This document shows positions 1 to 29,628 of a DNA stretch of 32,000 nt, in pieces (position 1 is the first letter of the stretch; each line of letters begins with the position of its first letter). Position numbers and translations under genes: made by a program. Source of the DNA: an uncultured Calditrichaceae bacterium (lineage in GTDB: Bacteria; Zhuqueibacterota; Zhuqueibacteria; Oceanimicrobiales; Oceanimicrobiaceae); assembly GCA_964455375.1 (NCBI GenBank), contig CAYVXE010000003.1, positions 50,805-82,804 on the forward strand, written 5' to 3'. Below the pieces are notes generated by a model. That model worked only from the letters and a program-made list of their open reading frames with translations. It was not told the origin of the DNA and did not search any database.

Positions 1-234
1 ACCGAACTAACGTTTTCAACGGTACTCATCGTCAATCTATTGGGCTACCTGGTCATTTACTCGCTTGGAATCTTGATTCTTTATGTGAACTTGAATTACG
101 TTGTTGGTCAGTCAAGACTTTTTTCAGAAGTTCTCTGGCTGGGTTGTTTTATCTTTATTCCGGGAAGTCTCATAAAGGCCACCATTAGCGCATTTGTTAC
201 GTTGAAATTAACGAATGTTTTAAACAGGTTATGA
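1..234 (+). CDS. C-terminal fragment of an integral membrane protein, possibly a BioY-like/ECF S-component (N-terminus outside the window)
   Basis: Frame 1 is open from base 1 to the TGA at 232-234. The sequence is hydrophobic throughout. The C-terminal ...LGCFIFIPGSLIKATISAFV resembles the conserved PF(I/L)PGD(L/I)(I/L)K end of BioY proteins. The stop overlaps the anmK start (ATGA at 231-234). Confidence 0.4.
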   Translation, partial: TELTFSTVLIVNLLGYLVIYSLGILILYVNLNYVVGQSRLFSEVLWLGCFIFIPGSLIKATISAFVTLKLTNVLNRL

Positions 235-5467: not shown

Positions 5468-6025
5468 ATGTTTTGCAGTAAGAATCTTTTACAAAAGATC
5501 GTTTTTTGGAGCGTCTTACCACTTGTTTTTTGTGCCTGTGCGAGGAACGACACAGAAACAGAACCATTTGACTTTGATTTTGAAACGGAAGCCGATTTAA
5601 ATGCATTGACATGGGAGTGCCGGCAATTGTACAGCCTGTCTCCGGAACATGTGACGCATGGTAAATTCAGCCTAAAAGCAGAGCTTTATCCCGGTTTGTA
5701 CCCGGGGTTGAAAATTCGCCGGTTTGATCCGGACTGGTCGAGATATTCGGCGCTGCATTTTGATCTGTTTAATCCGCTTCCGGATTCCCTGCCGCTACAC
5801 ATTCGCATTGACGATCAACAGGAGCACCCTGAGTTTGAGAACCGTTTTAATTTGACGATCATGTTGCAACCGGGTGCCGGGCACTACATCCTGCCATTGA
5901 GCAAGGTGATAACCTCCGGCAGCAAACGGCCATTAAAGTTAAGCTCCATTGAGGCGGTTTACTTGTTTATCGTCCAGCCGAAGAAGGAAGTCGATCTATA
6001 TTTTGATTTTTTACACCTGGAGTAA
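5468..6025 (+). CDS. hypothetical secreted protein or lipoprotein
   Basis: The 185-aa ORF has an N-terminal signal-like segment ending VFCAC. I recognise no family. It lies 11 nt after the upstream gene. Confidence 0.5.
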   Translation: MFCSKNLLQKIVFWSVLPLVFCACARNDTETEPFDFDFETEADLNALTWECRQLYSLSPEHVTHGKFSLKAELYPGLYPGLKIRRFDPDWSRYSALHFDLFNPLPDSLPLHIRIDDQQEHPEFENRFNLTIMLQPGAGHYILPLSKVITSGSKRPLKLSSIEAVYLFIVQPKKEVDLYFDFLHLE

Positions 6026-14963: not shown

Positions 14964-16853
14964 ATGTGTTTGAGTAAATTAATGGCATGGACCATTTTAG
15001 CAACTGGAGTACTTAGCGGGTCTCCGGACGGTCTGGCGATTGCTCAAACAGGCGTTAACACCGAGCCTCTGCTGATGCAACCGCGGTATTCACGATTAAA
15101 TTTCAACCGGTCGCTTAATATTTACGAATGGTTTTACAGATTCAATTACCATAAACGCGTTGGCAAAAAACTGCAATTCCTTTTGCGAGAGAATTATCGT
15201 ACAACGTTACAGCAAACGAAAGCAAAAGATTTATGGAAGGACGATCAGAATTTTGTGGTGCAGTTCACGTATCCCTTTGCTACAAAGCTTATGTTTGAAG
15301 CATCGTTCGACTCCCGTGTTTTGTCGGATCCCTTGGCTGGCTTTGATAACAGTGTGACCTATTATTCCGGCACCACAAAAATACATTATACGCCGTTTAG
15401 GAATATAAGGCTATCACCGCAAATCAGTCGTCAGTGGCAAACGCAACTGGAGCAAAGCGACCAGGGGGTGGGGTATGGATTAGCCGCGGATGTTGATCGG
15501 TTCGATTTTAATGGCTACAGCACGAATTTGACATTTTTCGGAGAAAGGGATATATTCCCAAAACGGAGGAACGATGATATTAAATTTCGCTATACGATTA
15601 AGCGGCAGTTTTATGAATCCACAGCAGATACGCTGGCGATCATTTTTGACCGGTTACGCCGCGATAGTTTCGATGCGTTTACGACCGGTGTTTTTATACG
15701 CAACTTAATCCAGTCCCGAAGGGGTATCGAAAATAAACTTAGTTACAAGGTTGGCTCTTCTTCGGTTCTTTATGTTAAAAATGCGCTTTTATCAACATCG
15801 TTCAAAGTGAAGAATATAAAAGGCAGCTCCACAGATTTACAGAAGGAGGATGCAGGATTCGAGTCACGGCATTCGCTGAATTTGAAAATGAAAAAGTCAA
15901 AGTGGGTTGGAAACGTGGGTTGGAATTTTCGGCTTCGTACACGCGACGATAAACGTAAGGTCGACCGCACACCGGACCCCTTTGGCCGTTTCCCGACAGT
16001 GGGATTTGACTCGGAAGATAAGTTAGTAGAATTAAACACACACAGCGGATATGCGTTGAGCTCGGCGGATTCTTTAGGATTTTTTGCTGCCGTTTCAAAA
16101 TTTCAATACGATACGTCAGATACGACAAGTCCCAATGATCATGATTTTATTCGCTGGCAAGTATTCTTTTCACATGCACATACGTTTAACAAAACGTTAC
16201 ATCTGGTTTGGTCGGGAGGGGTATTCTTAAATCATTTTGTTTTTATTTCCGGGAGATTCAGCAGTGGTAATAATTGGGAGCGGATCTTTCAGTTGACTCC
16301 TGAAGTGGTTTTTCAGCCGCAACGGCAATGGTATTTCAAGCAGAAGTTTATCGTCCGGTCAAAATACCAAACGTATGATTTTGACGATGCTGCGACGAGC
16401 AATCGAAATATCGTCAGCCGTCAATTTATTGTATCTAATATCAGCCATTTCCCGTTTCCCGGGAATATGAGTGCGGAGTTGTCCGTTGATCTTGAGTTAG
16501 CAGAACAGGGACGTTTATTTTATAGTCGTTGGCGGCAGAATTTAGCTCTCTCCTGGCAAAATCGGGAAATTCGTTTTATGCTAAAAAAAAGATTACATTC
16601 CGGTATGAATATATCGGTTGGAGGAAGTTATTTCAACCAGAAACGCTGGCAACATAATCTCAATTCGAAGGGTAATTTCGACAAAAAATTGCAGACAATG
16701 CATACCAATTGGGGGCCGATTGTTCAGGTCAGGTATCAACCGCACCCTTCGATGGAAGTTTTGTTTTTAGGAAATATTCAGTTTGTTAATTCGTTTCGCA
16801 GACGCACAGAAACAATCAATAATTTCGACGTGAATGTCAATTGGTTTTTTTAA
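14964..16853 (+). CDS. hypothetical outer-membrane beta-barrel protein
   Basis: The 629-aa ORF has a signal peptide and alternating aromatic/polar beta-strand-like texture. It ends in an aromatic residue (...VNWFF). I recognise no family. Confidence 0.5.
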   Translation: MCLSKLMAWTILATGVLSGSPDGLAIAQTGVNTEPLLMQPRYSRLNFNRSLNIYEWFYRFNYHKRVGKKLQFLLRENYRTTLQQTKAKDLWKDDQNFVVQFTYPFATKLMFEASFDSRVLSDPLAGFDNSVTYYSGTTKIHYTPFRNIRLSPQISRQWQTQLEQSDQGVGYGLAADVDRFDFNGYSTNLTFFGERDIFPKRRNDDIKFRYTIKRQFYESTADTLAIIFDRLRRDSFDAFTTGVFIRNLIQSRRGIENKLSYKVGSSSVLYVKNALLSTSFKVKNIKGSSTDLQKEDAGFESRHSLNLKMKKSKWVGNVGWNFRLRTRDDKRKVDRTPDPFGRFPTVGFDSEDKLVELNTHSGYALSSADSLGFFAAVSKFQYDTSDTTSPNDHDFIRWQVFFSHAHTFNKTLHLVWSGGVFLNHFVFISGRFSSGNNWERIFQLTPEVVFQPQRQWYFKQKFIVRSKYQTYDFDDAATSNRNIVSRQFIVSNISHFPFPGNMSAELSVDLELAEQGRLFYSRWRQNLALSWQNREIRFMLKKRLHSGMNISVGGSYFNQKRWQHNLNSKGNFDKKLQTMHTNWGPIVQVRYQPHPSMEVLFLGNIQFVNSFRRRTETINNFDVNVNWFF

Positions 16854-16868
16854 AGTGAAAGGAATTGC

Positions 16869-17291
16869 GTGACTAAGAAAAGAAAAAACGAATTTGAAAT
16901 GACGATTCCCAGCAGTCTTGAACATATAGCGGCCGTAGAAAAATTATGTGAAAAAGCTGCCAACAAAATGAGTTTTAATGAAGAGGATAAGGATAGTCTC
17001 GCAATTGCGGTAACTGAGGCAGTGAATAATGCAATTTTACACGGCAACAAACAAAATGAAAATAAACACGTCACCATAAAATTTTTGTTTGAAGAAAGAA
17101 AACTTATTTGTAAAATTAGAGATGAAGGCGAGGGCTTTAACCCCCAAAATGTTGGTGATCCGTTAGCACCGGAAAATTTACTTAAAGAAAGCGGACGCGG
17201 GATTTTTATTTTATCATCATTAATGGATGATGTGAAATATGCTTTTTCAGAAAACGGCACCGAGATTATTTTGATTAAAGAAAAAAAGTAA
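16869..17291 (+). CDS. anti-sigma regulatory factor / Ser-Thr kinase (RsbW/SpoIIAB-like HATPase)
   Basis: The GTG start is preceded by AAAGGA. The N-box is EAVNNAILHGN, with G-boxes DEGEGF and GRGIFI. The ORF is 140 aa. Confidence 0.75.
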   Translation: MTKKRKNEFEMTIPSSLEHIAAVEKLCEKAANKMSFNEEDKDSLAIAVTEAVNNAILHGNKQNENKHVTIKFLFEERKLICKIRDEGEGFNPQNVGDPLAPENLLKESGRGIFILSSLMDDVKYAFSENGTEIILIKEKK

Positions 17292-17344
17292 AGAAGATTT
17301 TGAGTTGGCGATGTCTCAACTTTCAGAAGTTTTGACATCGGAGA

Positions 17345-17386
17345 CCGTTCTCGTTTTCGAAGATAAAAACGAAGCGGTTTTTTATT
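17345..17386 (+). terminator. intrinsic terminator, in or just before the thiC leader
   Basis: CCGTTCTCGTTTT (17345-17357) pairs with AAAACGAAGCGG (17366-17377): 12 bp with one bulged C and a 7-nt loop. A TTTTTTATT tract follows immediately. The element ends about 20 nt before the thiC Shine-Dalgarno AAGGAGG. Confidence 0.7.
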
Positions 17387-17404
17387 CATACTAAGGAGGA
17401 TTGA

Positions 17405-18823
<1,419 letters not shown>

Positions 18824-19641: not shown

Positions 19642-19772
19642 ATGAGCATTTCCTAATTAACGTTGCCCAAAACGCTACAGAACGACAGAACTCCATAATA
19701 AGCAAGGATTTCGTCAGATAAAAAAGAAAGGGGATGTAGCCAATGCAAAGGATGCGCTTTTTCAAAGGTCAA

Positions 19773-20273
19773 ATGAAGACGCTGCTTTTCAAATATGGCA
19801 TAATCGCGCTGCCGCTTTTGGCCGGGATTTGCCTGGGAGGCTGTGCGGTTAACGAAACAAAGCCAAATGATGAAAATCGCGCGCCAGAAAAACCGGTGGC
19901 TCAAGTCAACTCTGTGCAAGTCAGCGGAGAGCCAAATGCTTACCAGTTCTCAGTGGGAATCATGAGCCCTGACAAAGGCTGTGAACAATACGCGGACTGG
20001 TGGGAAGTTCTCTCAGAAAATGGAACCTTGATTTATCGGCGAATTTTAGCCCATAGCCATGTTAATGAGCAGCCATTTGTGCGTTCCGGGCAACCGGTGC
20101 GAATACAAGCCAATGACGTTGTTTACATTCGTGGTCACATGCATCCGGGAGGATACGGCGGCAACGTTTTTACAGGGACGGTGCAAGATGGATTCCGGGA
20201 AGTTACGGTCAGCGCCGACTTTGCGGCGGGCGTAGAAAAAGAGCCCCCCCAACCCACTGATTGTGCCTTTTGA
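19773..20273 (+). CDS. hypothetical lipoprotein
   Basis: The likely start MKTLLFKYGIIALPLLAGICLGGC has an LGGC lipobox. The track start at 19743 is the alternative. I recognise no family. The protein is His/Cys-containing (HSHVNE, GHMHPGGYGG). Confidence 0.5.
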   Translation: MKTLLFKYGIIALPLLAGICLGGCAVNETKPNDENRAPEKPVAQVNSVQVSGEPNAYQFSVGIMSPDKGCEQYADWWEVLSENGTLIYRRILAHSHVNEQPFVRSGQPVRIQANDVVYIRGHMHPGGYGGNVFTGTVQDGFREVTVSADFAAGVEKEPPQPTDCAF

Positions 20274-20282
20274 TGAACAAAT

Positions 20283-22544
20283 CTATTTTGAACCCCCTCC
20301 CAGCAAATTTAACATCTCCCGAGCATCCGTCGTTGGGGCATTACAGGCAAAATTCTTACAAACATACGCCGTTGCTTTGCCGTCGACGGACTTTTGAAAT
20401 TCCGTAAAAGCTGCGATGTTTGTTATTGGTGGCTTTTCTTTTTCACCGGGGCGGAACAACACAACTTTGTTGGGAAGATAGTTCGTTTGCAATGTCTTCA
20501 GCATCTCCTGCGTATCTTTGTCTGACAGGGTGCCGGCAATGACGACTTCGTAGGTTGGGCCGAAGGCAAAAAGCAATGCAGATATGAGTTGTGTACTACT
20601 AATGGGTGACTGCGTCAGTTGGGTCGAGAATGCTTTGCCAATGGCCACGGTTTTTTCTTCCAGGTCGGTGCTGCCGGTCATTCTGCTTAGACGCAGGAGG
20701 TTCATCGCTGCTACCGAATTTCCCGAAGGGATGGCGCCGTCGTAAATTTCTTTATTTCTAACCAACAGATCTCCCTGACTATTTGTTGCAAAAAAGAATC
20801 CGCCATTTTTTGTATCCCAAAAATCCTTCAACATAATATCGTTGAGGTAAATGGCCCGCTGCAGATAGTCTATATCAAACGTCGCTTCGTAGAGATTGAG
20901 CATTCCCCAGACCATAAAGGCGTAATCGTCCGAGTGTGCCGGTAAAGCTGCTTCTCCCTGACGGTAGCGTTTCAGGAGTTTCCCGTCTTTATCCCGCACG
21001 GAATCCCAGATAAAATCAGCCGCTTTACGCGCCGCCGTGGCGTACGTCGGTTCATTTAAAACGGCAGCGCCTTCTGCGAGAGCAGCGATCATCATGCCGT
21101 TCCAGTCGGTGAGAACTTTGTCGTCTTTAAAGGGATGCACGCGTTTTTCGCGCACGGAAAAAAGTTTTTTTCTGGCTTTTTCCCACCGTTGCTTTAATTG
21201 TTCTTCTGAAACAGACTGCTCTTTTGCCAGCTCGCCCCAGGTTTTTTTTAAATACAGAATGCTGCCGCCAGTTTTCTGTTGTGTCGCCTGATCAAGAAAG
21301 TTTCCACCGGCTTCGACGTTGAACAGTTTAATGACGAAGTCACCTTCTTCCTTGCCGAGAACATCTGTAATTTTCTCCGGCGTCCATAAATAGAAAAGTC
21401 CCTCTTCTCCCTCACTGTCGGCGTCTTCTGCGGAATAAAACCCACCTTCCGGTGAGGTCATATCGCGCAAAACATAGGTGAAAATGTCACGGGCGATCTC
21501 GGCATATTCCTGTTTGCCGGTTGCCTGGAAGGCCTCGACATAAGCCATGGCCAGACCGGCCTGGTCGTAGAGCATTTTTTCGAAATGCGGCAAAAACCAC
21601 CGCTGGTCTGTGGAGTAGCGATGGAACCCGAAACCAACCTGATCGAACATGCCGCCAAGATGCATCTGCTGCAGCGTTTTTTCCACCATCTCCAGCGCCT
21701 TTGGGCTTTTGTATTGCTGCCAATAACGCAGCAGAAAAGTCAGATTGTGTGGTGAAGGAAACTTTGGCGCCTGACCAAAGCCGCCGTAGGTGGGATCGAA
21801 GCGTTGACTCAGTTGTTGAAAAGCCGTTTGCAAGACCTGTTTATCCAGTGCGCTGCCCGGTTGGCCGCCTGTGTTTTTTTGCAGAAAATCGACGACGCGG
21901 TCTGCGCTTGTAAGAATTTTTTGCCGGTCTGTTTTCCATGATTTGTCGATACCCGGGATAAGATCCAGCATGCCGACTCTCTGGAAGCGACTCGTTTTCG
22001 GGAAATAGGTGCCGGCATAAAACGGCTTTTTATCGGGCGTCATGATGATCGTCAATGGCCAGCCGCCGCTGCCGGTCATAGCGGTACAGACCTGCATATA
22101 GATTTGATCGATATCCGGGCGTTCTTCCCGGTCGACTTTAATGCAGACGAATGTTTTATTCAACAATGCGGCAACCGTGGAGTCTTCAAAAGATTCATGT
22201 TCCATGACGTGGCACCAGTGGCAGGTGGAGTAACCGATGGAAAGAAAAATCGGTTTGTCTTCTCTCCGCGCTTTTGCAAATGCTTCTTCTCCCCAGGGAT
22301 ACCAGTCCACCGGGTTTCTGGCATGTTGTAAGAGATAGGGACTTTTTTGAAAAATGAGTCGGTTAAACTCGGGTCCGCCGTCCTTCGGCAAACGGGCAAT
22401 TTCTGCTGCGGACGGCAATCCTACCCGGCCGTCCTTTGTATGTTCTTGTGACATAGGTTTTCCATGGTATCGTTGAATAGTTATGGCCAATATTAAAACA
22501 GCTAAAATTCCAAACAGGAAAATAAGTTTGATATATTTTTTCAT
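20283..22544 (-). CDS. thioredoxin domain-containing protein (DUF255/YyaL family with a six-hairpin glycosidase-like C-terminal domain)
   Basis: The 753-aa ORF carries [36 protein letters not shown] and GGWPL, all typical of DUF255. An N-terminal signal or anchor is present. Confidence 0.9.
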
Positions 22545-22798
22545 GATTTACAATAGTCGGATATGATTGTTTTGAAATTAATGGATGCGATATTAGTAAT
22601 GAACGTTCAGGGTTAGAGATTTGTTCCGAATATAAAAAAAGCTTTTAAAAATGCAAAGAAAAGCGGGCTCTGCACGATTATGCTAAGTTTTTGTGAAAGT
22701 GTGTCGGCATAAATGTTTAAAAATTGCAACAACAATTTAGAATTAGTCACACCATCCGATAAGATGAAGTAAATTCATTAACCAAATCTAAACAAAAG

Positions 22799-24607
22799 AT
22801 GACGAAAATGGTGAAATCTAAAGATGTTGTTTATGCCCTGTGCCTTTTACTCTTACCTGCCGCCGGCATTTCGCAGATTTATGAACCGCAAAAACCGCTT
22901 TCTGAAATTGAAAGTTCCATGGAGGCGAATTTAACCTGGAATCTGCAAAGCGCACTGTTGCTGTATTACCCGGAGAACAAGTTTGTTGTTAAGGCGGATG
23001 TACGATTACAAAAAGTAAAGCCCAAACGGGTGCTACCAAAGTTACCGGACGCACTTTTGAGCAGAAGCGTAAACAATTTGCCCGGCTTACCCTACGTTCC
23101 CCTGGATTTTGGAGAAGCAACACCGCCCCAACAAAAACGTGACAATTTAAGAAACTATGTTCGGGAAAACAATTTTCAAGTGGCGAGTATCCGGGTGAAT
23201 GTGCTGGTTGATGCGAGCCTGCGTGAAAGTGACTGGGCATTCATTCGTCGCTATTCGGCCCTTGTGGCTGATTTGGAACCGACCCGGGGCGATCAGATTC
23301 GCATTGAGCGGTTAACGTTTCCGGATAAAGCGACTTTTTTTGCAGCAAAGCAGAAGCCTGAGGTGCAACAGCCGGCTAAAACGAAACCACCGCAACAGGC
23401 GCAGATCATCCCGTCTGATTTCGATTGGCGTCCATACGCGTTTGCCGGAGGCATTGCTCTTCTGTTGATCATCGCGTTCTTTCTTGGCATTCGGGCAATT
23501 ACAAAATCCATAAAGAAATCCATGAGTAAAAATGATGCGGTTGCTGCAAAAGATCAATCGCCGCTTCCGGTATCCCGGGCTGCTGTGGCAAAACACAGGC
23601 AGGAAACAGATCAAACACGGGGAACGTCTGAAACGCCCAATTACCATCAGTTGAGATCCGAAATGATGGATACTATCGTCGGCACGCCGTCTTCCGCCGC
23701 CGCGGTTTTTAACCAATGGATTGAAGAGAGAGACGAAGCCGGGACAAAAGATGTGGCCGCCCTGCTTACGGGAGTGTCAAAACCACTGGCCGAACTCCTG
23801 ACACCGTATTTTGGCAAGGAGACCGCCGGCGCCGTGAAAAGTAAAATGGCGGAGATGGAAAAGGATGTACCGGAAAGCGAGGTCGATGAATTAATTAAAT
23901 TGTTTAATGGCGATTTGCGTAAACTGGTGGTGAAGGAAAGCAAAGACCCCAAAGAAAATGACGCCCTTGCCTTTTTGAACCAGATGAGCGATAACCAGTT
24001 GGAACATTTGCTGAAGCCGTTGAAGACCGGCATTAAAGCCATCGTTTTGGCACAGATGCGTTCTAATCGTGCGGCAAAGTTTCTAAGCAAAATGGATGCG
24101 GATGAGAAAAAAGAAGTGTTGGTGTCGATGGGCAATATTGAACATCTTCCGTTGGATGTTTATCAACACATTGCCCGGCAACTGGCAGCACGTGCGAACA
24201 AACTGGAAAAAATGCGCTACGTGCGCGCCAATGGCGTGGACGCGGTGGTGAAAGTTATGGAGCATCTCGATGAAAAGACGCAGGACGACCTGTTGAACCA
24301 CCTGCAAACCCAGGACGTAAAACTCGCACAGAAAGTCCATCAGAAATTTATGACGTTTAATCAGTTGCTGGACATGCCGGAGGAAGAAATTCAGAAAGTC
24401 GCACTGGAGGTGGATCGCGAGATCTTAGCAAAATCGCTCGTTACAGTGGATGAAGAAACCGTGGTCAGAATCGTCTCGGCGCTGCCGGAAAAGTTGCAGG
24501 AACTGGTGACAGCAAGTCTTGAATCTAACCACGACATACCTGAAAATGAAGTGGCACAGGCGCGACGGGCATTGATGCGATCGTTGCGAGAAAGCCAAAA
24601 ACAATAA
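22799..24607 (+). CDS. membrane-anchored FliF(C-terminal portion)-FliG fusion-like protein
   Basis: The 602-aa ORF has, in order: an N-terminal signal/TM; a periplasmic segment of about 180 aa ending in a FliF-like VASIRVNVLVD...RGDQIRIERLTF; and a TM at about aa 213-233. It continues with a FliF-C-like helix AAAVFNQWIEE, then FliG N/M/C-like sequence to the end. The last part includes FMTFNQLLDMPEEEIQKVALEVDREILAKSL, compared with E. coli FliG MFVFENLVDVDDRSIQRLLQEVDSESLLIALKG. Confidence 0.7.
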   Translation: MTKMVKSKDVVYALCLLLLPAAGISQIYEPQKPLSEIESSMEANLTWNLQSALLLYYPENKFVVKADVRLQKVKPKRVLPKLPDALLSRSVNNLPGLPYVPLDFGEATPPQQKRDNLRNYVRENNFQVASIRVNVLVDASLRESDWAFIRRYSALVADLEPTRGDQIRIERLTFPDKATFFAAKQKPEVQQPAKTKPPQQAQIIPSDFDWRPYAFAGGIALLLIIAFFLGIRAITKSIKKSMSKNDAVAAKDQSPLPVSRAAVAKHRQETDQTRGTSETPNYHQLRSEMMDTIVGTPSSAAAVFNQWIEERDEAGTKDVAALLTGVSKPLAELLTPYFGKETAGAVKSKMAEMEKDVPESEVDELIKLFNGDLRKLVVKESKDPKENDALAFLNQMSDNQLEHLLKPLKTGIKAIVLAQMRSNRAAKFLSKMDADEKKEVLVSMGNIEHLPLDVYQHIARQLAARANKLEKMRYVRANGVDAVVKVMEHLDEKTQDDLLNHLQTQDVKLAQKVHQKFMTFNQLLDMPEEEIQKVALEVDREILAKSLVTVDEETVVRIVSALPEKLQELVTASLESNHDIPENEVAQARRALMRSLRESQKQ

Positions 24608-24630
24608 AAAACCTAATAAATGAGTGAATA

Positions 24631-25752
24631 ATGAGAAAACAAATAATAATATTAGCAGCGTTTGTTTTGTTGACAGGAGCATCATGGTCACCGGTCAATG
24701 CCCAGCCCGGCGACGATGATATTCTCAAGCTTGCAGAAGAAATTTTCCAGCAAATTCCGCGGGATTTGTCGGAAATCGATCCGCAACTCGGCAGAATAGC
24801 AGTTTACCGGTTGGAAACCGACAATAAATTCATTTCGGCATCTCTGCAGGAACACATCAAAAGCCGGTTGTTGGAAATTATGAGCCAACTGGATCAGCCG
24901 AGGGTCGTTTCCCTGCCGAAGTTAAACACGTTGCAGATTTCCTCTACGGACACAACGTTCTCGATTTTGAACTCCCTGCCGACGCCGGAAGACGTGTGGC
25001 GGGTAGGTAAAAAGCTGCGTGTGGATGCATTTCTTGAAGGCAATTTGACCTACATTCCGCAAAAAGCACTCCTTGTTGATTTGCGTTTAAACCGCATCGG
25101 GACCAATGAAGTTCTCTGGGCAAAGTCATATTCCGCGTATGAGAAAAATTTGAAGTTGCCGAAAGTAAATCCTTTGCGAAAAAGTATCAACGCCGGCTTA
25201 GAAATTTTTAATGTGGACGTGACCGTTCCCACGGACTCGCTCATCAGTTCTGATTTCAGCAACCGACTTATTCAGTATTCAGCTTATGTGGGCGTTTACC
25301 AGTACGTCACGCCCAAAAGCAGATTGCGCTATGAATTGCGTCTGGGTCTGTCTTATTTGTCAGATGGCATTCAGCTTAACAAAGGGTCGTTCGCAAAGAA
25401 TTCTTTTTACTATGATTCCGGCAGTACATTTCAGTTTGGCCGGCCCTCATCTTTAAATATTCGTTCCCTTCTTACCTCTGCCATTGCGGAAAACAAACAG
25501 AACCCGGCCGGTGACTGGTTGTCGGTTTATCTCTCCATTACCCGCTATTTTGCTGTGAATATGCCCGATATAACCGGATTTGGAATTGGTTTTCGCAGTG
25601 ACATCAATACCCATTTTTCTGTTTCTGCCGGAATTGCCGTCGTTGTGGGGAAGGAATTTAGTTCCGGTCGTATTTTACCGACCAATGAACGCGCCCGCAT
25701 AAAAGTTCACGGTCTGCACTACGATATTCAATTTTTACAATTTACATTTTAA
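24631..25752 (+). CDS. outer-membrane protein: periplasmic alpha/beta domain (CsgG/LpoB/FlgO-like pattern) plus predicted beta-barrel
   Basis: A type-I signal peptide is present (VNA/QP). The N-terminal half reads RIAVYRLETDNK...RVVS...LRVDAFLEGNLTY...LVDLRLNRIGTNEVLWAKSYS. The C-terminal half has beta-strand texture and ends ...LQFTF. The family call is at pattern level only. Confidence 0.5.
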   Translation: MRKQIIILAAFVLLTGASWSPVNAQPGDDDILKLAEEIFQQIPRDLSEIDPQLGRIAVYRLETDNKFISASLQEHIKSRLLEIMSQLDQPRVVSLPKLNTLQISSTDTTFSILNSLPTPEDVWRVGKKLRVDAFLEGNLTYIPQKALLVDLRLNRIGTNEVLWAKSYSAYEKNLKLPKVNPLRKSINAGLEIFNVDVTVPTDSLISSDFSNRLIQYSAYVGVYQYVTPKSRLRYELRLGLSYLSDGIQLNKGSFAKNSFYYDSGSTFQFGRPSSLNIRSLLTSAIAENKQNPAGDWLSVYLSITRYFAVNMPDITGFGIGFRSDINTHFSVSAGIAVVVGKEFSSGRILPTNERARIKVHGLHYDIQFLQFTF

Positions 25753-25790
25753 GTTAATCTGGATTTTACTCTACCTATAGGATTGTAACC

Positions 25791-26438
25791 ATGAAACAAA
25801 CAATTGTAATGATAACCGCAAAATCAGCGATTTTTGCTTTTTTGATGACCATGGCCAGCGGTTTCGGTCTTTGGAGTTGTGCAAATCAATCCAAATCATT
25901 GCAGCGTCAGGTAACCGAAACGTCTACTGCGGATTCATCGGCAGTCGGTAAATTAAAAAAGAAGACCTATCTGAAGGTTAAATTTCATCAGAACGACACA
26001 GATGTGGAGCTGGTTTTAGACCCGGAAGCCCAAAATCTGGCCCTGGATTTTGTCAGAAGCCCGGATGGCCAATTGCAGGTTTTTGACGGCGATTCGTCAT
26101 TGATAAAGAAGGAAAAGGATCCTGAGCTGACGAACGGACTTTTGAAGAAACTGCAGAACAGGAAAGACGGTCTGGACAGGGAGGACCTCACAGACGAAAT
26201 CGTTCAGGATATCAATGAAGCACAGCGGTTATTTTATCAGAAAGAATACATACAGGCTCTAAAGGTCCTGCAGGCCTCTCTGGAAAAGAGAAAGTCAGCC
26301 ACCGCGTATGCGCTTGGCGGCTCTATTTACTACGTCAACGGCGATATTGAGGAGGCTGTCAATGCCTGGGAAAATGCACTAAAAATTAATCCGGATCTGC
26401 AGGATGTAAAAGAATTGGTGGATCGGTATAAACAATAG
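25791..26438 (+). CDS. TPR-containing lipoprotein
   Basis: The signal ends in the lipobox GLWSC. The middle is charged. The C-terminal region is TPR-like (YIQALKVLQASLEK...AYALGGSIYYVNGDIEEAVNAWENALKINPD). Confidence 0.65.
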   Translation: MKQTIVMITAKSAIFAFLMTMASGFGLWSCANQSKSLQRQVTETSTADSSAVGKLKKKTYLKVKFHQNDTDVELVLDPEAQNLALDFVRSPDGQLQVFDGDSSLIKKEKDPELTNGLLKKLQNRKDGLDREDLTDEIVQDINEAQRLFYQKEYIQALKVLQASLEKRKSATAYALGGSIYYVNGDIEEAVNAWENALKINPDLQDVKELVDRYKQ

Positions 26439-26460
26439 TACAAAATAAAAGGACAGAATT

Positions 26461-27282
26461 GTGTTAACATTATTAGGATTTGTTGTAGGCGTTGCTCTTG
26501 TTGGTTATGGCATTTCAACCGGAAAAGCTCCTCCGGAAATATTTTTAAACTGGCAGGGACTGGCCATTGTCTGCGGTGGTTCCATCGCTGCGATTGTGGT
26601 CTCTTACCCCATTCCTGAAATCGTGCGTGCCTTTACATCGTATTTTATCATTTTTCGGTCCGGCGCGCATAAATATATCAAAGCCATTGATAAAATGGTA
26701 TCCTGCATTCGCACCTATCAGCGGGAGGGCCAGGAAAAACTCTTACAGATTCTGGCATCCGGGACAAAGCTGTGGATATTTTACGACGGTGTGCAGATGA
26801 AGTCCGTGGGCTATTCTCAGGAAGAAACGAAGGAGATTCTCGAAGACCAGATTCGCTGGCAAATGACCCGGGAAATGAAGCAGCATCATCTGTTTTCGAC
26901 GATGGCAAAAGTTGCACCGGCATTTGGTATGATCGGCACGCTCATCGGGCTCATCAATATGCTTATTACGTTGCAGAGTCATCCGGGCAACGTCGGCAGC
27001 GGCCTTGCCATTGCTTTGACAACGACCTTTTACGGTTTGATTTTGGCGAACATCATCTTCGCACCAATTGCCGAAAAATTAAAAGAGCGCGCAGAAAATA
27101 ATTTTCTCATCGAGACCATGCAACTGGAAGCTGTGATGATGCTTTATGAAGATCGCAACTATGTGTATGCCCGCGACAAATTAGCCGCGTATTTGAATGC
27201 AGCTAATCGTAAAAAAGTGCAGAAGGTTGCTGGCAAAATGGATTTTTCAAAAAACAAAAAACGGTTTAAAAAAGTTGCTTAA
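26461..27282 (+). CDS. motA: MotA/PomA-type stator proton-channel protein
   Basis: The GTG start is preceded by AAAGGA. The topology is 4-TM: two TMs, a cytoplasmic loop of about 100 aa, then two TMs. The MotA_ExbB core APAFGMIGTLIGLINML...GLAIALTTTFYGLILANIIFAPIAEKL is present. Confidence 0.85.
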   Translation: MLTLLGFVVGVALVGYGISTGKAPPEIFLNWQGLAIVCGGSIAAIVVSYPIPEIVRAFTSYFIIFRSGAHKYIKAIDKMVSCIRTYQREGQEKLLQILASGTKLWIFYDGVQMKSVGYSQEETKEILEDQIRWQMTREMKQHHLFSTMAKVAPAFGMIGTLIGLINMLITLQSHPGNVGSGLAIALTTTFYGLILANIIFAPIAEKLKERAENNFLIETMQLEAVMMLYEDRNYVYARDKLAAYLNAANRKKVQKVAGKMDFSKNKKRFKKVA

Positions 27283-27316
27283 GAGTTTTAATAAAAGAAG
27301 TGGGAGTTAGTTTTTT

Positions 27317-27952
27317 ATGGAAATCAAACTGCACAACAATGTTTTTTCCAGAGAGGATGAGTCACAGTCCTGGCTTTTGTCTTACAGTGATATGGTGACA
27401 CTTTTGCTGGCATTTTTTGTTTTGTTTTTTGCCATTTCACAAGTGGATCAGGCTAAATTTGAATCCATTATGCAGTATTTTAACCGTGAAAATACCATGC
27501 CGCTGCAGGTTTTGGAACAAAAATTTAAAGCATTGGTGCAGCAACATCATCTTGAAAAAAGTGTGGATGTGCAGTTGACGCCGGACGGATTGCTGGTTAA
27601 TTTTCAGGACGAGATTCTTTTTGAATCCGGCAAAGCAGAACTGAACACAAAATCTTTTCCGATTTTAACCTCCATGGCAGGCCTTTTGAAAGACGAGGCC
27701 GTGGCAAAACGCCATGTACAGGTTCAAGGCCATACCGACAGTGTGCCGTTGGCAAAAAATTCTTTATATCCTTCAAATTGGGAATTGTCCGGTGCGCGTT
27801 CGGCGCGGGTTATTCGCTATTTAATTCGGGAAGGATTGAGTCCGGCGCGTTTTGTATCTGTGGGCTATGCTGACACCCGGCTGCGAGTTGCGGAAGCGGA
27901 AAACAACCGTGGTCTGCAAGCCAATCGCAGGGTTAGTTTTCTCATTAAATAA
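27317..27952 (+). CDS. motB: MotB-type stator protein with OmpA-like peptidoglycan-binding domain
   Basis: The N-terminal WLLSYSDMVTLLLAFFVLFF is the MotB TM carrying the conserved Asp. The C-terminus is OmpA-like (GHTDSVP, NWELSGARSARVIRYL, NRRVSFLI). Confidence 0.85.
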   Translation: MEIKLHNNVFSREDESQSWLLSYSDMVTLLLAFFVLFFAISQVDQAKFESIMQYFNRENTMPLQVLEQKFKALVQQHHLEKSVDVQLTPDGLLVNFQDEILFESGKAELNTKSFPILTSMAGLLKDEAVAKRHVQVQGHTDSVPLAKNSLYPSNWELSGARSARVIRYLIREGLSPARFVSVGYADTRLRVAEAENNRGLQANRRVSFLIK

Positions 27953-28371: not shown

Positions 28372-29628
28372 TCAATTTACTATCATTTCATACAGCTTAT
28401 CTTTATTACTTTCAGTTTTCATTTTTTCGCTTATTAATTTTGTATTTCTTTTGTAGGATTCATTATTGATTAGGTCTAACAATTTACTTTCAAAGTTCTT
28501 TTCATTAAGGTGTTTTATTGACATTCCCTTTGGGCCCAGATGTAACTTGGAAATTGTCTCATTCCAATAGAATTGATCTAGGATGTGAGGAATAATCAAG
28601 CTTGGACAAGCATATTTCAATGCCGTATGTGTGGTTCCAGCCCCTCCATGGTGAACGACAGCATGCATTTTGGGGAATATCCAATCGTAAGGTATATTAC
28701 TCACAAAGTGAATGTGATCTGAAGATTCAGTAGTTTTCTCCAGCCCTCCCCATGAAGTATTGATAATAGCTGAAACTTTATTCCTTTTCAGTACTTCAAC
28801 TATGATGCGGGTTTTTTCTCTTGGATTGGAATTAGACATACTCCCAAAAGTGATCAGGATAACTTTTTTATACTTCTTGAGAAAATCTACTAATTCTTTA
28901 TCGGGTTGCCAATTTTTTGTTTTATCTCTTTCATAGTAACCAACAACGTGAGCAACTGAAGGCCAATATTCAGGCTTAGGAAATAGTGAAGGAGAAACAG
29001 CATAAAAGGTCTTTTCTTTTTCAAGCATCGCCTTTTTTATTGACGAAGCAGTAATTTTTAATCCAGGGTAATCTTTGCGATATCGTTTTGACACTAGTTT
29101 CAAGATGATGGCCTTGATGGTATTTCCCAGCCAGGCACTTAATATATTCATGACTATTCCATAGTTACCCAATATGGTAAGATGGTTAATAGCATGTGCT
29201 ACACCTGGTATAGGACTTACCAAGATAGATTTACCAGGGTTAGCCATTCCCCAGATAAGACTATAATTACATTTTGGATGGTATAGAATTCTATCAGGAT
29301 TTTCTTCTTTTTGAGTGTAATGATGTAATGCTAGAATATCTTTTGATAGTTTCAGACCAACTCTAGCCATTTTTATCAGGAATCCAATTCTTTTAAAAAT
29401 GGAACCTTGACCACCCATAAACATTTTTGCTTCTTTACCATCCAACATAATATCAAGAAATTCTTTGCTGAAACCACTGAAAGGAAGTTCCATTTGTTCA
29501 ACAGTTTCTCTAAATTGTTCTGGGAAGACGCAGATTACATCCCAATTCTTTTCTTTTAATAGCTGTGCGATTGCTAAAAACGGTTCGATATCCCCTCTCG
29601 TACCTATTGAAAATAAGATTGCTTTCAT
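28372..29628 (-). CDS. GT1-family UDP-glycosyltransferase (MGT/sterol-glucosyltransferase-like)
   Basis: The N-terminal SIGTRGDIEPFLAIAQLLKEKNWDV is a GT28-N-like block. The C-terminal donor-binding motif is HHGGAGTTHTALKYACPSLIIPHILDQFYW. The gene is conspicuously AT-rich compared with its neighbours. Confidence 0.85.
   Translation of the reverse strand: MKAILFSIGTRGDIEPFLAIAQLLKEKNWDVICVFPEQFRETVEQMELPFSGFSKEFLDIMLDGKEAKMFMGGQGSIFKRIGFLIKMARVGLKLSKDILALHHYTQKEENPDRILYHPKCNYSLIWGMANPGKSILVSPIPGVAHAINHLTILGNYGIVMNILSAWLGNTIKAIILKLVSKRYRKDYPGLKITASSIKKAMLEKEKTFYAVSPSLFPKPEYWPSVAHVVGYYERDKTKNWQPDKELVDFLKKYKKVILITFGSMSNSNPREKTRIIVEVLKRNKVSAIINTSWGGLEKTTESSDHIHFVSNIPYDWIFPKMHAVVHHGGAGTTHTALKYACPSLIIPHILDQFYWNETISKLHLGPKGMSIKHLNEKNFESKLLDLINNESYKRNTKLISEKMKTESNKDKLYEMIVN

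Follow-up and report, generated by a model that had tools for sequence, protein, structure and literature searches.

A 32,000-nucleotide (nt) window of contig CAYVXE010000003.1 (assembly GCA_964455375.1, an uncultured Calditrichaceae bacterium) was analysed for a cluster of five genes, here called g1 to g5, in which parts of a flagellar motor had been recognised from the sequence alone (the initial annotation). The five open reading frames (ORFs) all lie on the forward strand and are separated by only 23, 38, 22 and 34 nt, positions that match the first description exactly (Table 1). As also described, g1 and a divergent thioredoxin-fold/DUF255-type gene (20283-22544, minus strand) are 254 nt apart, and 419 nt follow g5 before a glycosyltransferase gene on the opposite strand (28372-29628). 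The first gene encodes a genuine natural end-to-end fusion of the last third of FliF with a complete FliG, and the five genes are inherited as a unit, with a sigma-28-like promoter in front.

Table 1. Genes and features of the five-gene locus, in window coordinates and in residues of the encoded proteins (aa, amino acids; AF2, AlphaFold2; TM, transmembrane; TPR, tetratricopeptide repeat).
Feature	Residues	Window position	Strand	Basis
Sigma-28 (FliA)-like promoter		22736..22762	+	TTTAGAATT-N11-CCGATAA, ends ~36 nt before g1 ATG
g1		22799-24607	+	ORF, 602 aa
g1 RBM3-like periplasmic domain	34-175	22898..23323	+	AF2, Foldseek, hhalign
g1 single TM helix, like FliF TM2	~211-245	23429..23533	+	AF2 helix, alignment with E. 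coli FliF TM2
g1 equivalent of FliG-binding helix	~279-311	23633..23731	+	hhalign, TPSSAAAVFNQWIEER vs E. coli FliF DPRVVALVIRQWINND
g1 FliG N, M and C domains	~312-601	23732..24604	+	Profile, Foldseek, alignment with E. coli and T. maritima FliG
g2		24631-25752	+	ORF, 373 aa
g2 TolB-N/LpoB/PelC-like alpha/beta domain	28-170	24712-25140	+	AF2, Foldseek
g2 small 8-10-strand beta-barrel	183-372	25177-25749	+	AF2, Foldseek; ends LQFTF
g3		25791-26438	+	ORF, 215 aa
g3 lipobox LWSC	Cys30	within 25791..26438	+	Cys after hydrophobic leader in most homologues
g3 TPR domain	143-207	26217-26411	+	Pfam TPR_2 2.9e-8 and other TPR families
g4		26461-27282	+	ORF, 273 aa, GTG start
g5		27317-27952	+	ORF, 211 aa
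g5 plug helix	14-57		+	Pfam MotB_plug
g5 OmpA-like peptidoglycan-binding domain	101-197		+	Pfam OmpA

The proposal that g1 joins a C-terminal part of FliF to FliG was borne out by a colinear profile alignment, by domain profiles and by the predicted fold, so that homology to both proteins is supported. The decisive target was E. coli FliF 361-552 (its final 192 residues) concatenated with the whole of E. coli FliG, on which hhalign placed the g1 family profile as one colinear block of 440 columns (probability 97%, E 1.1e-10). This block spans the end of ring-building motif 3 (RBM3) with its RGD motif, the second TM helix (TM2), the FliG-binding helix of FliF, and the N, M and C domains of FliG. 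In the AF2 model (predicted local distance difference test, pLDDT, 75), a signal-peptide-like N-terminus precedes an RBM3-like domain laid out as alpha-beta, insertion, beta-alpha-beta and ending in an invariant RGD...FP motif; the insertion (residues 73-116, ~45 residues) has low model confidence and carries an invariant LPGLP. Foldseek matched this periplasmic unit to the S-ring/RBM3 region of FliF (8z5v_A, 6sd3_Q, 7cg7_A) with template-modelling scores (TMt) of 0.5-0.57 and a probability of 1.0, at modest E-values of 4e-3 to 7e-2, and a broad family alignment, A4, aligned with E. coli FliF 374-430 (hhalign probability 88.7%, E 2.6e-6). The Pfam family YscJ_FliF_C was sub-threshold on g1 of the window (E 0.052, 14.4 bits vs a cutoff of 23.8) and was recorded for many g1 homologues. 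RBM1 and RBM2, the portion of FliF that encloses the export gate, are absent, the ~190 periplasmic residues forming a single alpha-beta...beta-alpha-beta unit with no Pfam YscJ_FliF match, and the beta-collar is mostly lost, reduced to the ~45-residue loop.

Beyond the TM helix, a variable linker leads into an all-helical cytoplasmic part (residues 279-601 in the AF2 model). Residues 279-385 were paired by hhalign with E. coli FliF 520-552 plus FliG 1-100, PxxxAxVxxQWI included, and W307 is invariant in the close family and nearly so in the broad one. Pfam recovered FliG_C (4.6e-15, 56.3 bits; cutoff 23.3), FliG_M (2.9e-8, 34.2 bits; cutoff 25) and FliG_N (1.2e-8), with FliG_N and MgtE_N both exceeding their cutoffs, while the FliG equivalog TIGR00207 scored 71.4 bits, below its cutoff of 226.7, over model positions 109-318 only. 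A profile search of the PDB matched residues 386-595 to the middle and C-terminal domains of T. maritima FliG (1lkv, E 4.8e-19), and Foldseek aligned the cytoplasmic part with full-length FliG (9n49_G, 8wiw_3, 3hjl) over ~315 columns at a probability of 1.0. The FliM-binding EHPQ is missing; the KSB1 clade has an invariant KPLKxG at its site, and distant relatives have acidic residues that vary. The MFxF-like hinge is retained as FMTF, and the equivalent of torque-helix R281 stays K or R across the family.

The head-to-tail topology of g1 is also that of engineered FliF-FliG fusions (Salmonella; Vibrio 8z4d/8z4g), and the g1 profile matches the FliG part of 8z4d (E 1.8e-16). The Vibrio fusion is reported to form MS-rings in membranes (bioRxiv 10.1101/2023.02.06.527414; PMC11481574). 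Those proteins are laboratory constructs of ~945 aa with full-length FliF, whereas g1 is natural, has 602 aa and retains no more of FliF than its last third. In searches of 8 million full texts, no natural FliF-FliG fusion, no FliG-like protein paired with MotAB and no non-flagellar FliG system came up; what they returned on FliF-FliG fusions was limited to the engineered ones, plus general treatments of MotAB homologues. NCBIfam (June 2026) holds no model for g1 or g2. The module is therefore apparently undescribed, with every identifiable part derived from the flagellar motor.

The last two genes had been read as a MotA/PomA and as a MotB with the TM Asp (SYSDMVTLL) and an OmpA-like domain, and both assignments hold. 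The g4 product matches Pfam MotA_ExbB (2e-26, 92.6 bits) and is colinear with full-length E. coli MotA, with four TM helices, the equivalents of the conserved TM3/TM4 prolines P173 and P222, and a shorter cytoplasmic loop between TM2 and TM3; its GTG start is supported because the N-terminus aligns with that of E. coli MotA. Its best NCBIfam score was ~131 bits for PomA/MotP (equivalog cutoffs of 341-394, not reached), compared with 26.8 bits for TolQ (cutoff 221) and 18 for ExbB. The g5 product matches MotB_plug (7e-18, 64.4 bits) and OmpA (8e-16, 58.6 bits) in Pfam and scores 139-158 bits against the NCBIfam MotD, MotS and MotB models (MotD 158, below its cutoff of 283). The channel Asp is conserved in all g5 homologues, and the first 60 residues are almost invariant among them. 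Judged from these sequence comparisons, g4 and g5 are a flagellar-type stator (PomA/MotB-like) and not TolQR or ExbBD. In TM3 and TM4, g4 has Thr (GMIGTLIGL, LTTTFYG) where E. coli MotA has Ala or Val-Gly, at sites that we take to be the T158, T185 and T186 positions of PomA. These PomA residues are needed for Na+ conduction (PMC6677748), and their likeness in g4 is only a hint that the stator is perhaps Na+-coupled. The g4 family also ends in a conserved basic tail (27190-27282; ...KK[RK]FKK[VA]A or ...KKAA) that E. coli MotA does not have.

No family in Pfam or NCBIfam matches g2, and a sequence-profile search of the PDB came back empty. Its description as a signal-peptide protein with a periplasmic alpha/beta domain and a barrel ending in LQFTF is supported by the AF2 model (pLDDT 82), which shows a signal peptide, an alpha/beta domain and a small beta-barrel, and by Foldseek, which related the first domain to TolB (E 5.5e-7), LpoB (4q6z, TMt 0.62) and PelC and the second to the 8-stranded outer-membrane (OM) barrels OprG, OmpA, Ail and NspA. 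The signal peptide and a C-terminal LQ[YF][TS]F are common to the g2 homologues. On the strength of the model, g2 is a secreted OM-barrel protein with a periplasmic TolB-N/LpoB-like domain. The Pfam family FlgO (PF17680) weakly matches 1 of 29 g2 homologues (E 1.3e-3) and does not match g2 of the window at E<=10. For g3, the lipobox and the Pfam TPR matches agree with its first reading as a lipoprotein with C-terminal TPRs. Both g2 and g3 are envelope proteins, g3 being a TPR lipoprotein.

Close relatives of g1 number 41 (41-100% identical, all ~585-615 aa), and those with names are labelled candidate division KSB1, Calditrichaeota or "bacterium"; a profile search with alignment A4 returned the same 41 proteins and no further taxa. 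Scanning one genome per GTDB species gave 19 g1 loci, all in metagenome-assembled genomes (MAGs) of the KSB1/Calditrichota group (loci are identified below by numbers with the prefix L). Each of the 15 loci that are long enough has the genes in the order g1-g2-g3-g4-g5 (42-72% identity), with unrelated genes on the flanks, and this order is found again in L029, L030, L032, L033 and L034. The recurrence of this order with non-conserved flanks supports the earlier view of a self-contained operon, and since the same five genes stand in the same order in 15/15 related loci and in five more, the arrangement is not due to chance. Even in the distant loci L020 and L021, one of which sits on a 1.36-Mb contig, the five-gene order is kept and orthologues of g2 and g3 are recognisable, with g1 being ~20-25% identical to that of the window. 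An exhaustive profile search of 1.84 billion representatives placed at least 173 clusters (50% identity) in the wider g1 family at E<=1e-30, and among the 150 matches listed (down to E 3e-35) nearly all were 560-780 aa long and matched end to end. With at least 173 clusters of full-length fused proteins, the fused architecture is a large family and not a local oddity.

This conservation bears on the idea that the locus is a decaying relic of a lost flagellar system, or a regulatory decoy in which a membrane FliG ring sequesters stators. Non-motile genomes commonly contain rotor and stator genes but no filament genes, and such sets are as a rule interpreted as remnants (PMC12199754). Here, however, the five ORFs are intact in more than 25 loci (40-100% identity), with a fixed order and invariant motifs (LPGLP, RGD and W307 of g1 show little or no variation). 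The locus also has a conserved promoter of its own, the co-evolution of g1 with its dedicated envelope partners g2 and g3 extends to distant lineages, and a decoy would need no stator genes of its own. We therefore regard relic and decoy alike as highly improbable, and a pseudogene relic in particular was rejected on the conservation of order and motifs and on the at least 173 clusters.

Some variation in composition was seen among more distant loci. L022, L026 and L028 have no adjacent g2, and a g3-like TPR protein always adjoins g1. L022 adds a Sel1-repeat protein, and L028 is preceded by a series of small unknown proteins and by one of 1006 aa with a g3-like C-terminus. The conserved core may be the fusion together with the TPR protein.

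Other flagellar genes were sought in the window and around the related loci. Pfam searches of all other ORFs of >=150 aa found no further flagellar gene in the 32 kb, nor did phmmer with 44 E. coli flagellar and chemotaxis proteins against ORF fragments of >=50 aa find a flagellar or chemotaxis gene, which confirms the original statement that no export gate, ATPase, rod, hook, flagellin or fliM/fliN is present. Likewise, no flagellar structural gene lies within +-10 kb of ~30 module copies (455 kb, window and loci).

A further feature of flagellar type is the promoter. Its common form, TCAAGAATT-N11-CCGATGA, is found 5' of g1 at most of the loci L001-L019, L033 and L034 and at no other place in ~455 kb of related loci, and the pattern T(C/T)(A/T)AG(A/T)(A/T)TT-N11-12-CCGAT(G/A/T)(A/T) describes the element in the window and at most KSB1/Calditrichota loci, where it usually ends 35-45 nt before the g1 ATG. 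The fitted pattern had 16 matches in 378 kb searched on 2 strands, and 16/16 lay on the coding strand just before g1; with a looser pattern there were 39 matches in 911 kb, 14 of them upstream of g1. The sigma-28 consensus consists of a -35 TCTAAAG and a -10 GCCGATAA spaced 14 nt apart (PMC12784957). The element fits the sigma-28 class and has its spacing of 14 nt; the strict consensus itself had 0 matches in the scanned loci. A TCAAGAAAAC...GCCGATCA variant is present at about -121 in L010, L033 and L034, the copies in L029 and L032 are degenerate, and the element is missing from the distant five-gene loci L020 and L021. At L003 (4926-5304), L010, L033 and L034 it stands 120-380 nt upstream of the g1 start, implying long 5' leaders or mis-called starts. 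In the KSB1/Calditrichota clade, the sequence of the element suggests that a FliA-type sigma factor probably reads the operon, and its conservation before g1 links the operon to regulation of the flagellar type. Hosts with flagella would accordingly express it together with their late motility genes. The extracytoplasmic function (ECF) sigma factor encoded ~4 kb upstream in L014 is not a FliA. A scan for sigma-70 promoters and terminators gave counts no higher than the shuffle level.

Taken as a whole, we would give about an even chance to the five genes being a self-contained, filament-less derivative of the flagellar motor core, that is, a rotor-stator machine of the envelope under flagellar-type regulation. 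In such a machine, g1 would oligomerise through its RBM3-like domain into a ring in the inner membrane, with a ring of FliG domains on the cytoplasmic face. The g4/g5 stators, anchored to peptidoglycan, would use ion flow (H+, possibly Na+) to push on FliG_C and so turn or strain the g1 ring. On the OM side, g2 and g3 could form a periplasmic scaffold that positions the stators, like the T/H rings or the PflA/PflB disks, or alternatively they could receive the mechanical output through the g1 loop that carries the invariant LPGLP; it may be speculated that this loop is a ligand of the g3 TPRs. Lacking an export gate, a rod, a hook and a FliM/FliN switch, the module cannot have a propeller as its output, which is probably work on the envelope.

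Several observations weigh against this interpretation. In the KSB1 clade, A-S stands in place of D288/D289 (some distant members have D-E), and the equivalents of E. coli FliG K264 and R297 are not retained, so that with the torque-helix charges partly lost the canonical electrostatic interface appears altered in g1. Some distant g1 relatives (P0175; P0225, which is L027 401-2560) carry an extra N-terminal LysM in front of the RBM3-like domain, and free ring rotation is hard to picture if that domain binds peptidoglycan, since it would anchor g1. The variant loci L022 (8042-13746), L026 (4889-9336) and L028 (6894-12429) have no adjacent motAB. The sigma-28-like promoter argues for a functional linkage to flagellar motility and not for independence. 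Finally, the carrier genomes GCA_022562085.1, GCA_022574215.1, GCA_025450675.1 and GCA_054026595.1 are absent from the published gene-content table (PMC9012183, Table S7) that is drawn on below. With regard to the first of these points, we speculate that divergent torque-helix charges could insulate the g1 rotor from the flagellar stators of the cell.

The altered torque helix and the LysM-bearing relatives, which suggest a g1 that is anchored and not freely spinning, would suit a non-rotary force transducer of the Tol-Pal or TonB kind. In that case the MotAB-type motor would pull g1 through a FliG-MotA contact instead of a contact between TM helices, and the periplasmic domain of g1 would relay the force to g2 and g3 for OM tethering, constriction or the energisation of OM proteins, without sustained rotation. 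The Tol-Pal system (TolQRA-TolB-Pal-CpoB) is likewise a five- or six-gene set that spans the envelope, with a motor of the MotA/TolQ family and an OmpA-like peptidoglycan binder, and the parts run in parallel to TolQ-TolR-TolA-TolB-Pal-CpoB: a motor pair, a partner anchored in the inner membrane, the TolB-N-like fold of g2, the OmpA-like domain of g5 and, in g3, a CpoB-like TPR protein. In contrast, the module has no TolA, no TolB beta-propeller and no Pal lipoprotein, and would be coupled through a cytoplasmic FliG. The stator pair scores as flagellar (131 bits for PomA vs 27 for TolQ) and keeps the flagellar-specific plug, and g1 retains a complete FliG, the MFxF-like hinge and an RBM3, a domain known for building large rings. 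A force transducer of this kind is, in our view, rather unlikely, and membership in Tol-Pal proper was rejected (TolQ at 26.8 bits against its cutoff of 221 and ~131 bits for PomA; a barrel in g2 instead of a propeller).

In other 5:2 motor systems an ion-driven motor of the MotAB family serves a non-flagellar output on the envelope, namely in GldLM/PorLM (gliding with the type IX secretion system), AglRQS-Glt of Myxococcus and ZorAB of Zorya. Agl-Glt also uses OM barrels and TPR proteins. Unlike the module, none of them is known to use FliG or FliF. Zorya or another defence system was also considered and rejected, as PADLOC found no match for g1-g4 (no ZorA) and g5 reached only generic ZorB models at <=65.6 bits vs 158 for MotD.

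The flagellar gene content of related genomes is indirect evidence as to whether such a machine depends on a flagellum. According to one survey of KSB1 (PMC9012183, Table S7), full flagellar sets in clade IV genomes mostly come with fliG=2, motA=2, motB=3, fliF=1 and fliM=1, and those in clade II genomes are single-copy, fliG and motA included. Two clade III genomes, GCA_002085355.1 and GCA_014729735.1, have fliG=1, motA=1 and motB=1 and zero counts for ~30 other flagellar KEGG orthologues (KOs) except for a FlgD call, with fliA present in one of the two (same table). The FlgD KO is called in the non-flagellated clades I and III (same table); these calls are probably false positives from FlgD-like immunoglobulin domains and a caution for the use of KO tables. 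Caldithrix abyssi has a complete flagellar gene set in one cluster (PMC5317091). We infer that g1, whose relatives are labelled "FliG" by JGI, contributes to the fliG counts, in which case the figures of Table S7 are the pattern expected of a module that adds to, and does not replace, canonical fliF and fliG and that is able to stand alone. The possibility that the locus is simply a canonical, dispersed fliF/fliG locus was rejected, since g1 has neither RBM1/2 nor EHPQ and flagellated KSB1 are reported to possess fliF as a gene apart, along with a second fliG.

The same data bear on a third alternative, in which the module is an accessory of a canonical flagellum, co-expressed with its late genes as an alternative or additional rotor/stator set, or as a periplasmic scaffold within or next to the basal body, and without function when the flagellum is missing. 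The conserved sigma-28-like promoter upstream of g1 speaks for it, as do the co-occurrence with full flagellar sets in KSB1 clade IV (granted the link to g1) and presumably in Calditrichota, the resemblance of g2 and g3 to known classes of flagellar scaffold (PMC7990780), and the weak FlgO match of one g2 homologue. On the other hand, a g1 with its own membrane anchor and ring-building domain would compete with FliF and not join it, its FliM-binding motif is lost, and the module never adjoins flagellar genes in ~30 loci; moreover, the two clade III genomes appear to carry only fliG, motA and motB, and the flagellated clade II genomes manage with a single fliG and motA. We consider a mere accessory improbable.

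Returning to a filament-less derivative of the motor core, the likeness to the flagellar motor can be followed part by part. The g1 protein is colinear with FliF (RBM3, TM2 and C-terminal helix) and FliG N, M and C; g4/g5 share the plug, the channel Asp, the conserved prolines and the OmpA-like anchor; and the promoter is of the sigma-28 class, which drives late flagellar genes. The module departs from the flagellar motor core in that it and its surroundings lack an export gate, ATPase, rod, hook, filament and FliM/FliN, in that its FliF and FliG parts form one polypeptide without RBM1/RBM2, and in having its own OM-barrel and TPR-lipoprotein partners. Comparable partners, OM-associated proteins and TPR or Sel1-type proteins, accompany PomAB-like stators in the scaffolds of Vibrio (the T- and H-rings, MotX/MotY and FlgO/FlgP/FlgT), Campylobacter (PflA/PflB/FlgP) and spirochaetes (FlbB/BB0236/FlcA). 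Known periplasmic scaffolds, TPR proteins among them, are required to recruit stators of the PomAB type (PMC7990780). The analogy to H-ring and TPR scaffolds drawn in the initial annotation is therefore reasonable, given the TolB-N/LpoB-like fold on an OM barrel in g2, the weak FlgO match in 1/29 homologues and the TPRs of g3. It remains an analogy of the "works like" kind, as no significant sequence membership of g2 or g3 in any of those families was found, and the module has neither the rod nor the LP rings on which the known scaffolds are built.

A stronger form of the same proposal is that the locus encodes an autonomous rotary nanomachine, in which a FliF-FliG ring is spun by its own stators and coupled to an OM barrel and a TPR lipoprotein without a type III secretion system, rod or filament, also in non-flagellated bacteria of the Fibrobacteres-Chlorobi-Bacteroidetes (FCB) group. 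We put this forward tentatively, as something that may well turn out otherwise. If true, it would represent an unrecognised use of the flagellar rotor-stator pair, for example in surface movement or in the handling of the envelope or of polymers, and the machine could be a pared-down flagellar motor or, alternatively, the surviving cousin of a proto-motor that preceded the export apparatus. What rotor proteins do where a genome encodes no filament is a question that a 2025 survey explicitly leaves open (PMC12199754). For this question the module offers a concrete and testable object, comprising a minimal rotor (RBM3 ring and FliG in one chain), a dedicated stator and envelope partners, conserved across a large and mostly uncultured radiation. 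If the module rotates, it would be the simplest known rotor of flagellar type and attractive for structural and single-molecule work, would constitute a new output for 5:2 ion motors, and would add a data point on the evolution of the flagellar motor core relative to the type III export apparatus. There is a bearing on annotation too, because metabolic reconstructions from MAGs label genes of the module "FliG", "MotA" and "MotB" and count them as flagellar.

The 419-nt spacer downstream of g5 holds only short unsupported ORFs (fold z-score 0.74), and no tRNA or Rfam match was found in the 32-kb window. The remainder of the window is ordinary chromosome, with genes for AnmK, a cNMP-binding protein, an AI-2E transporter, ThiC, an SDF symporter, an FKBP and AlaDH-like proteins. 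ORFs without a Pfam or NCBIfam family lie at 14964-16853 (plus strand, 629 aa), 16850-17518 (minus strand, 222 aa), 19743-20273 (plus strand, 176 aa) and 5468-6025 (plus strand, 185 aa); that of 222 aa overlaps the thiC start on the other strand and may not be a real gene. Among the related loci, the upstream DNA of L017 (Bacteroidetes bacterium HyVt-473) is nearly identical to that of L009 (KSB1 S139_20) despite their different phylum labels, and L018 bears the label Cytophagia; the taxonomy that public records assign to these MAGs looks unreliable.

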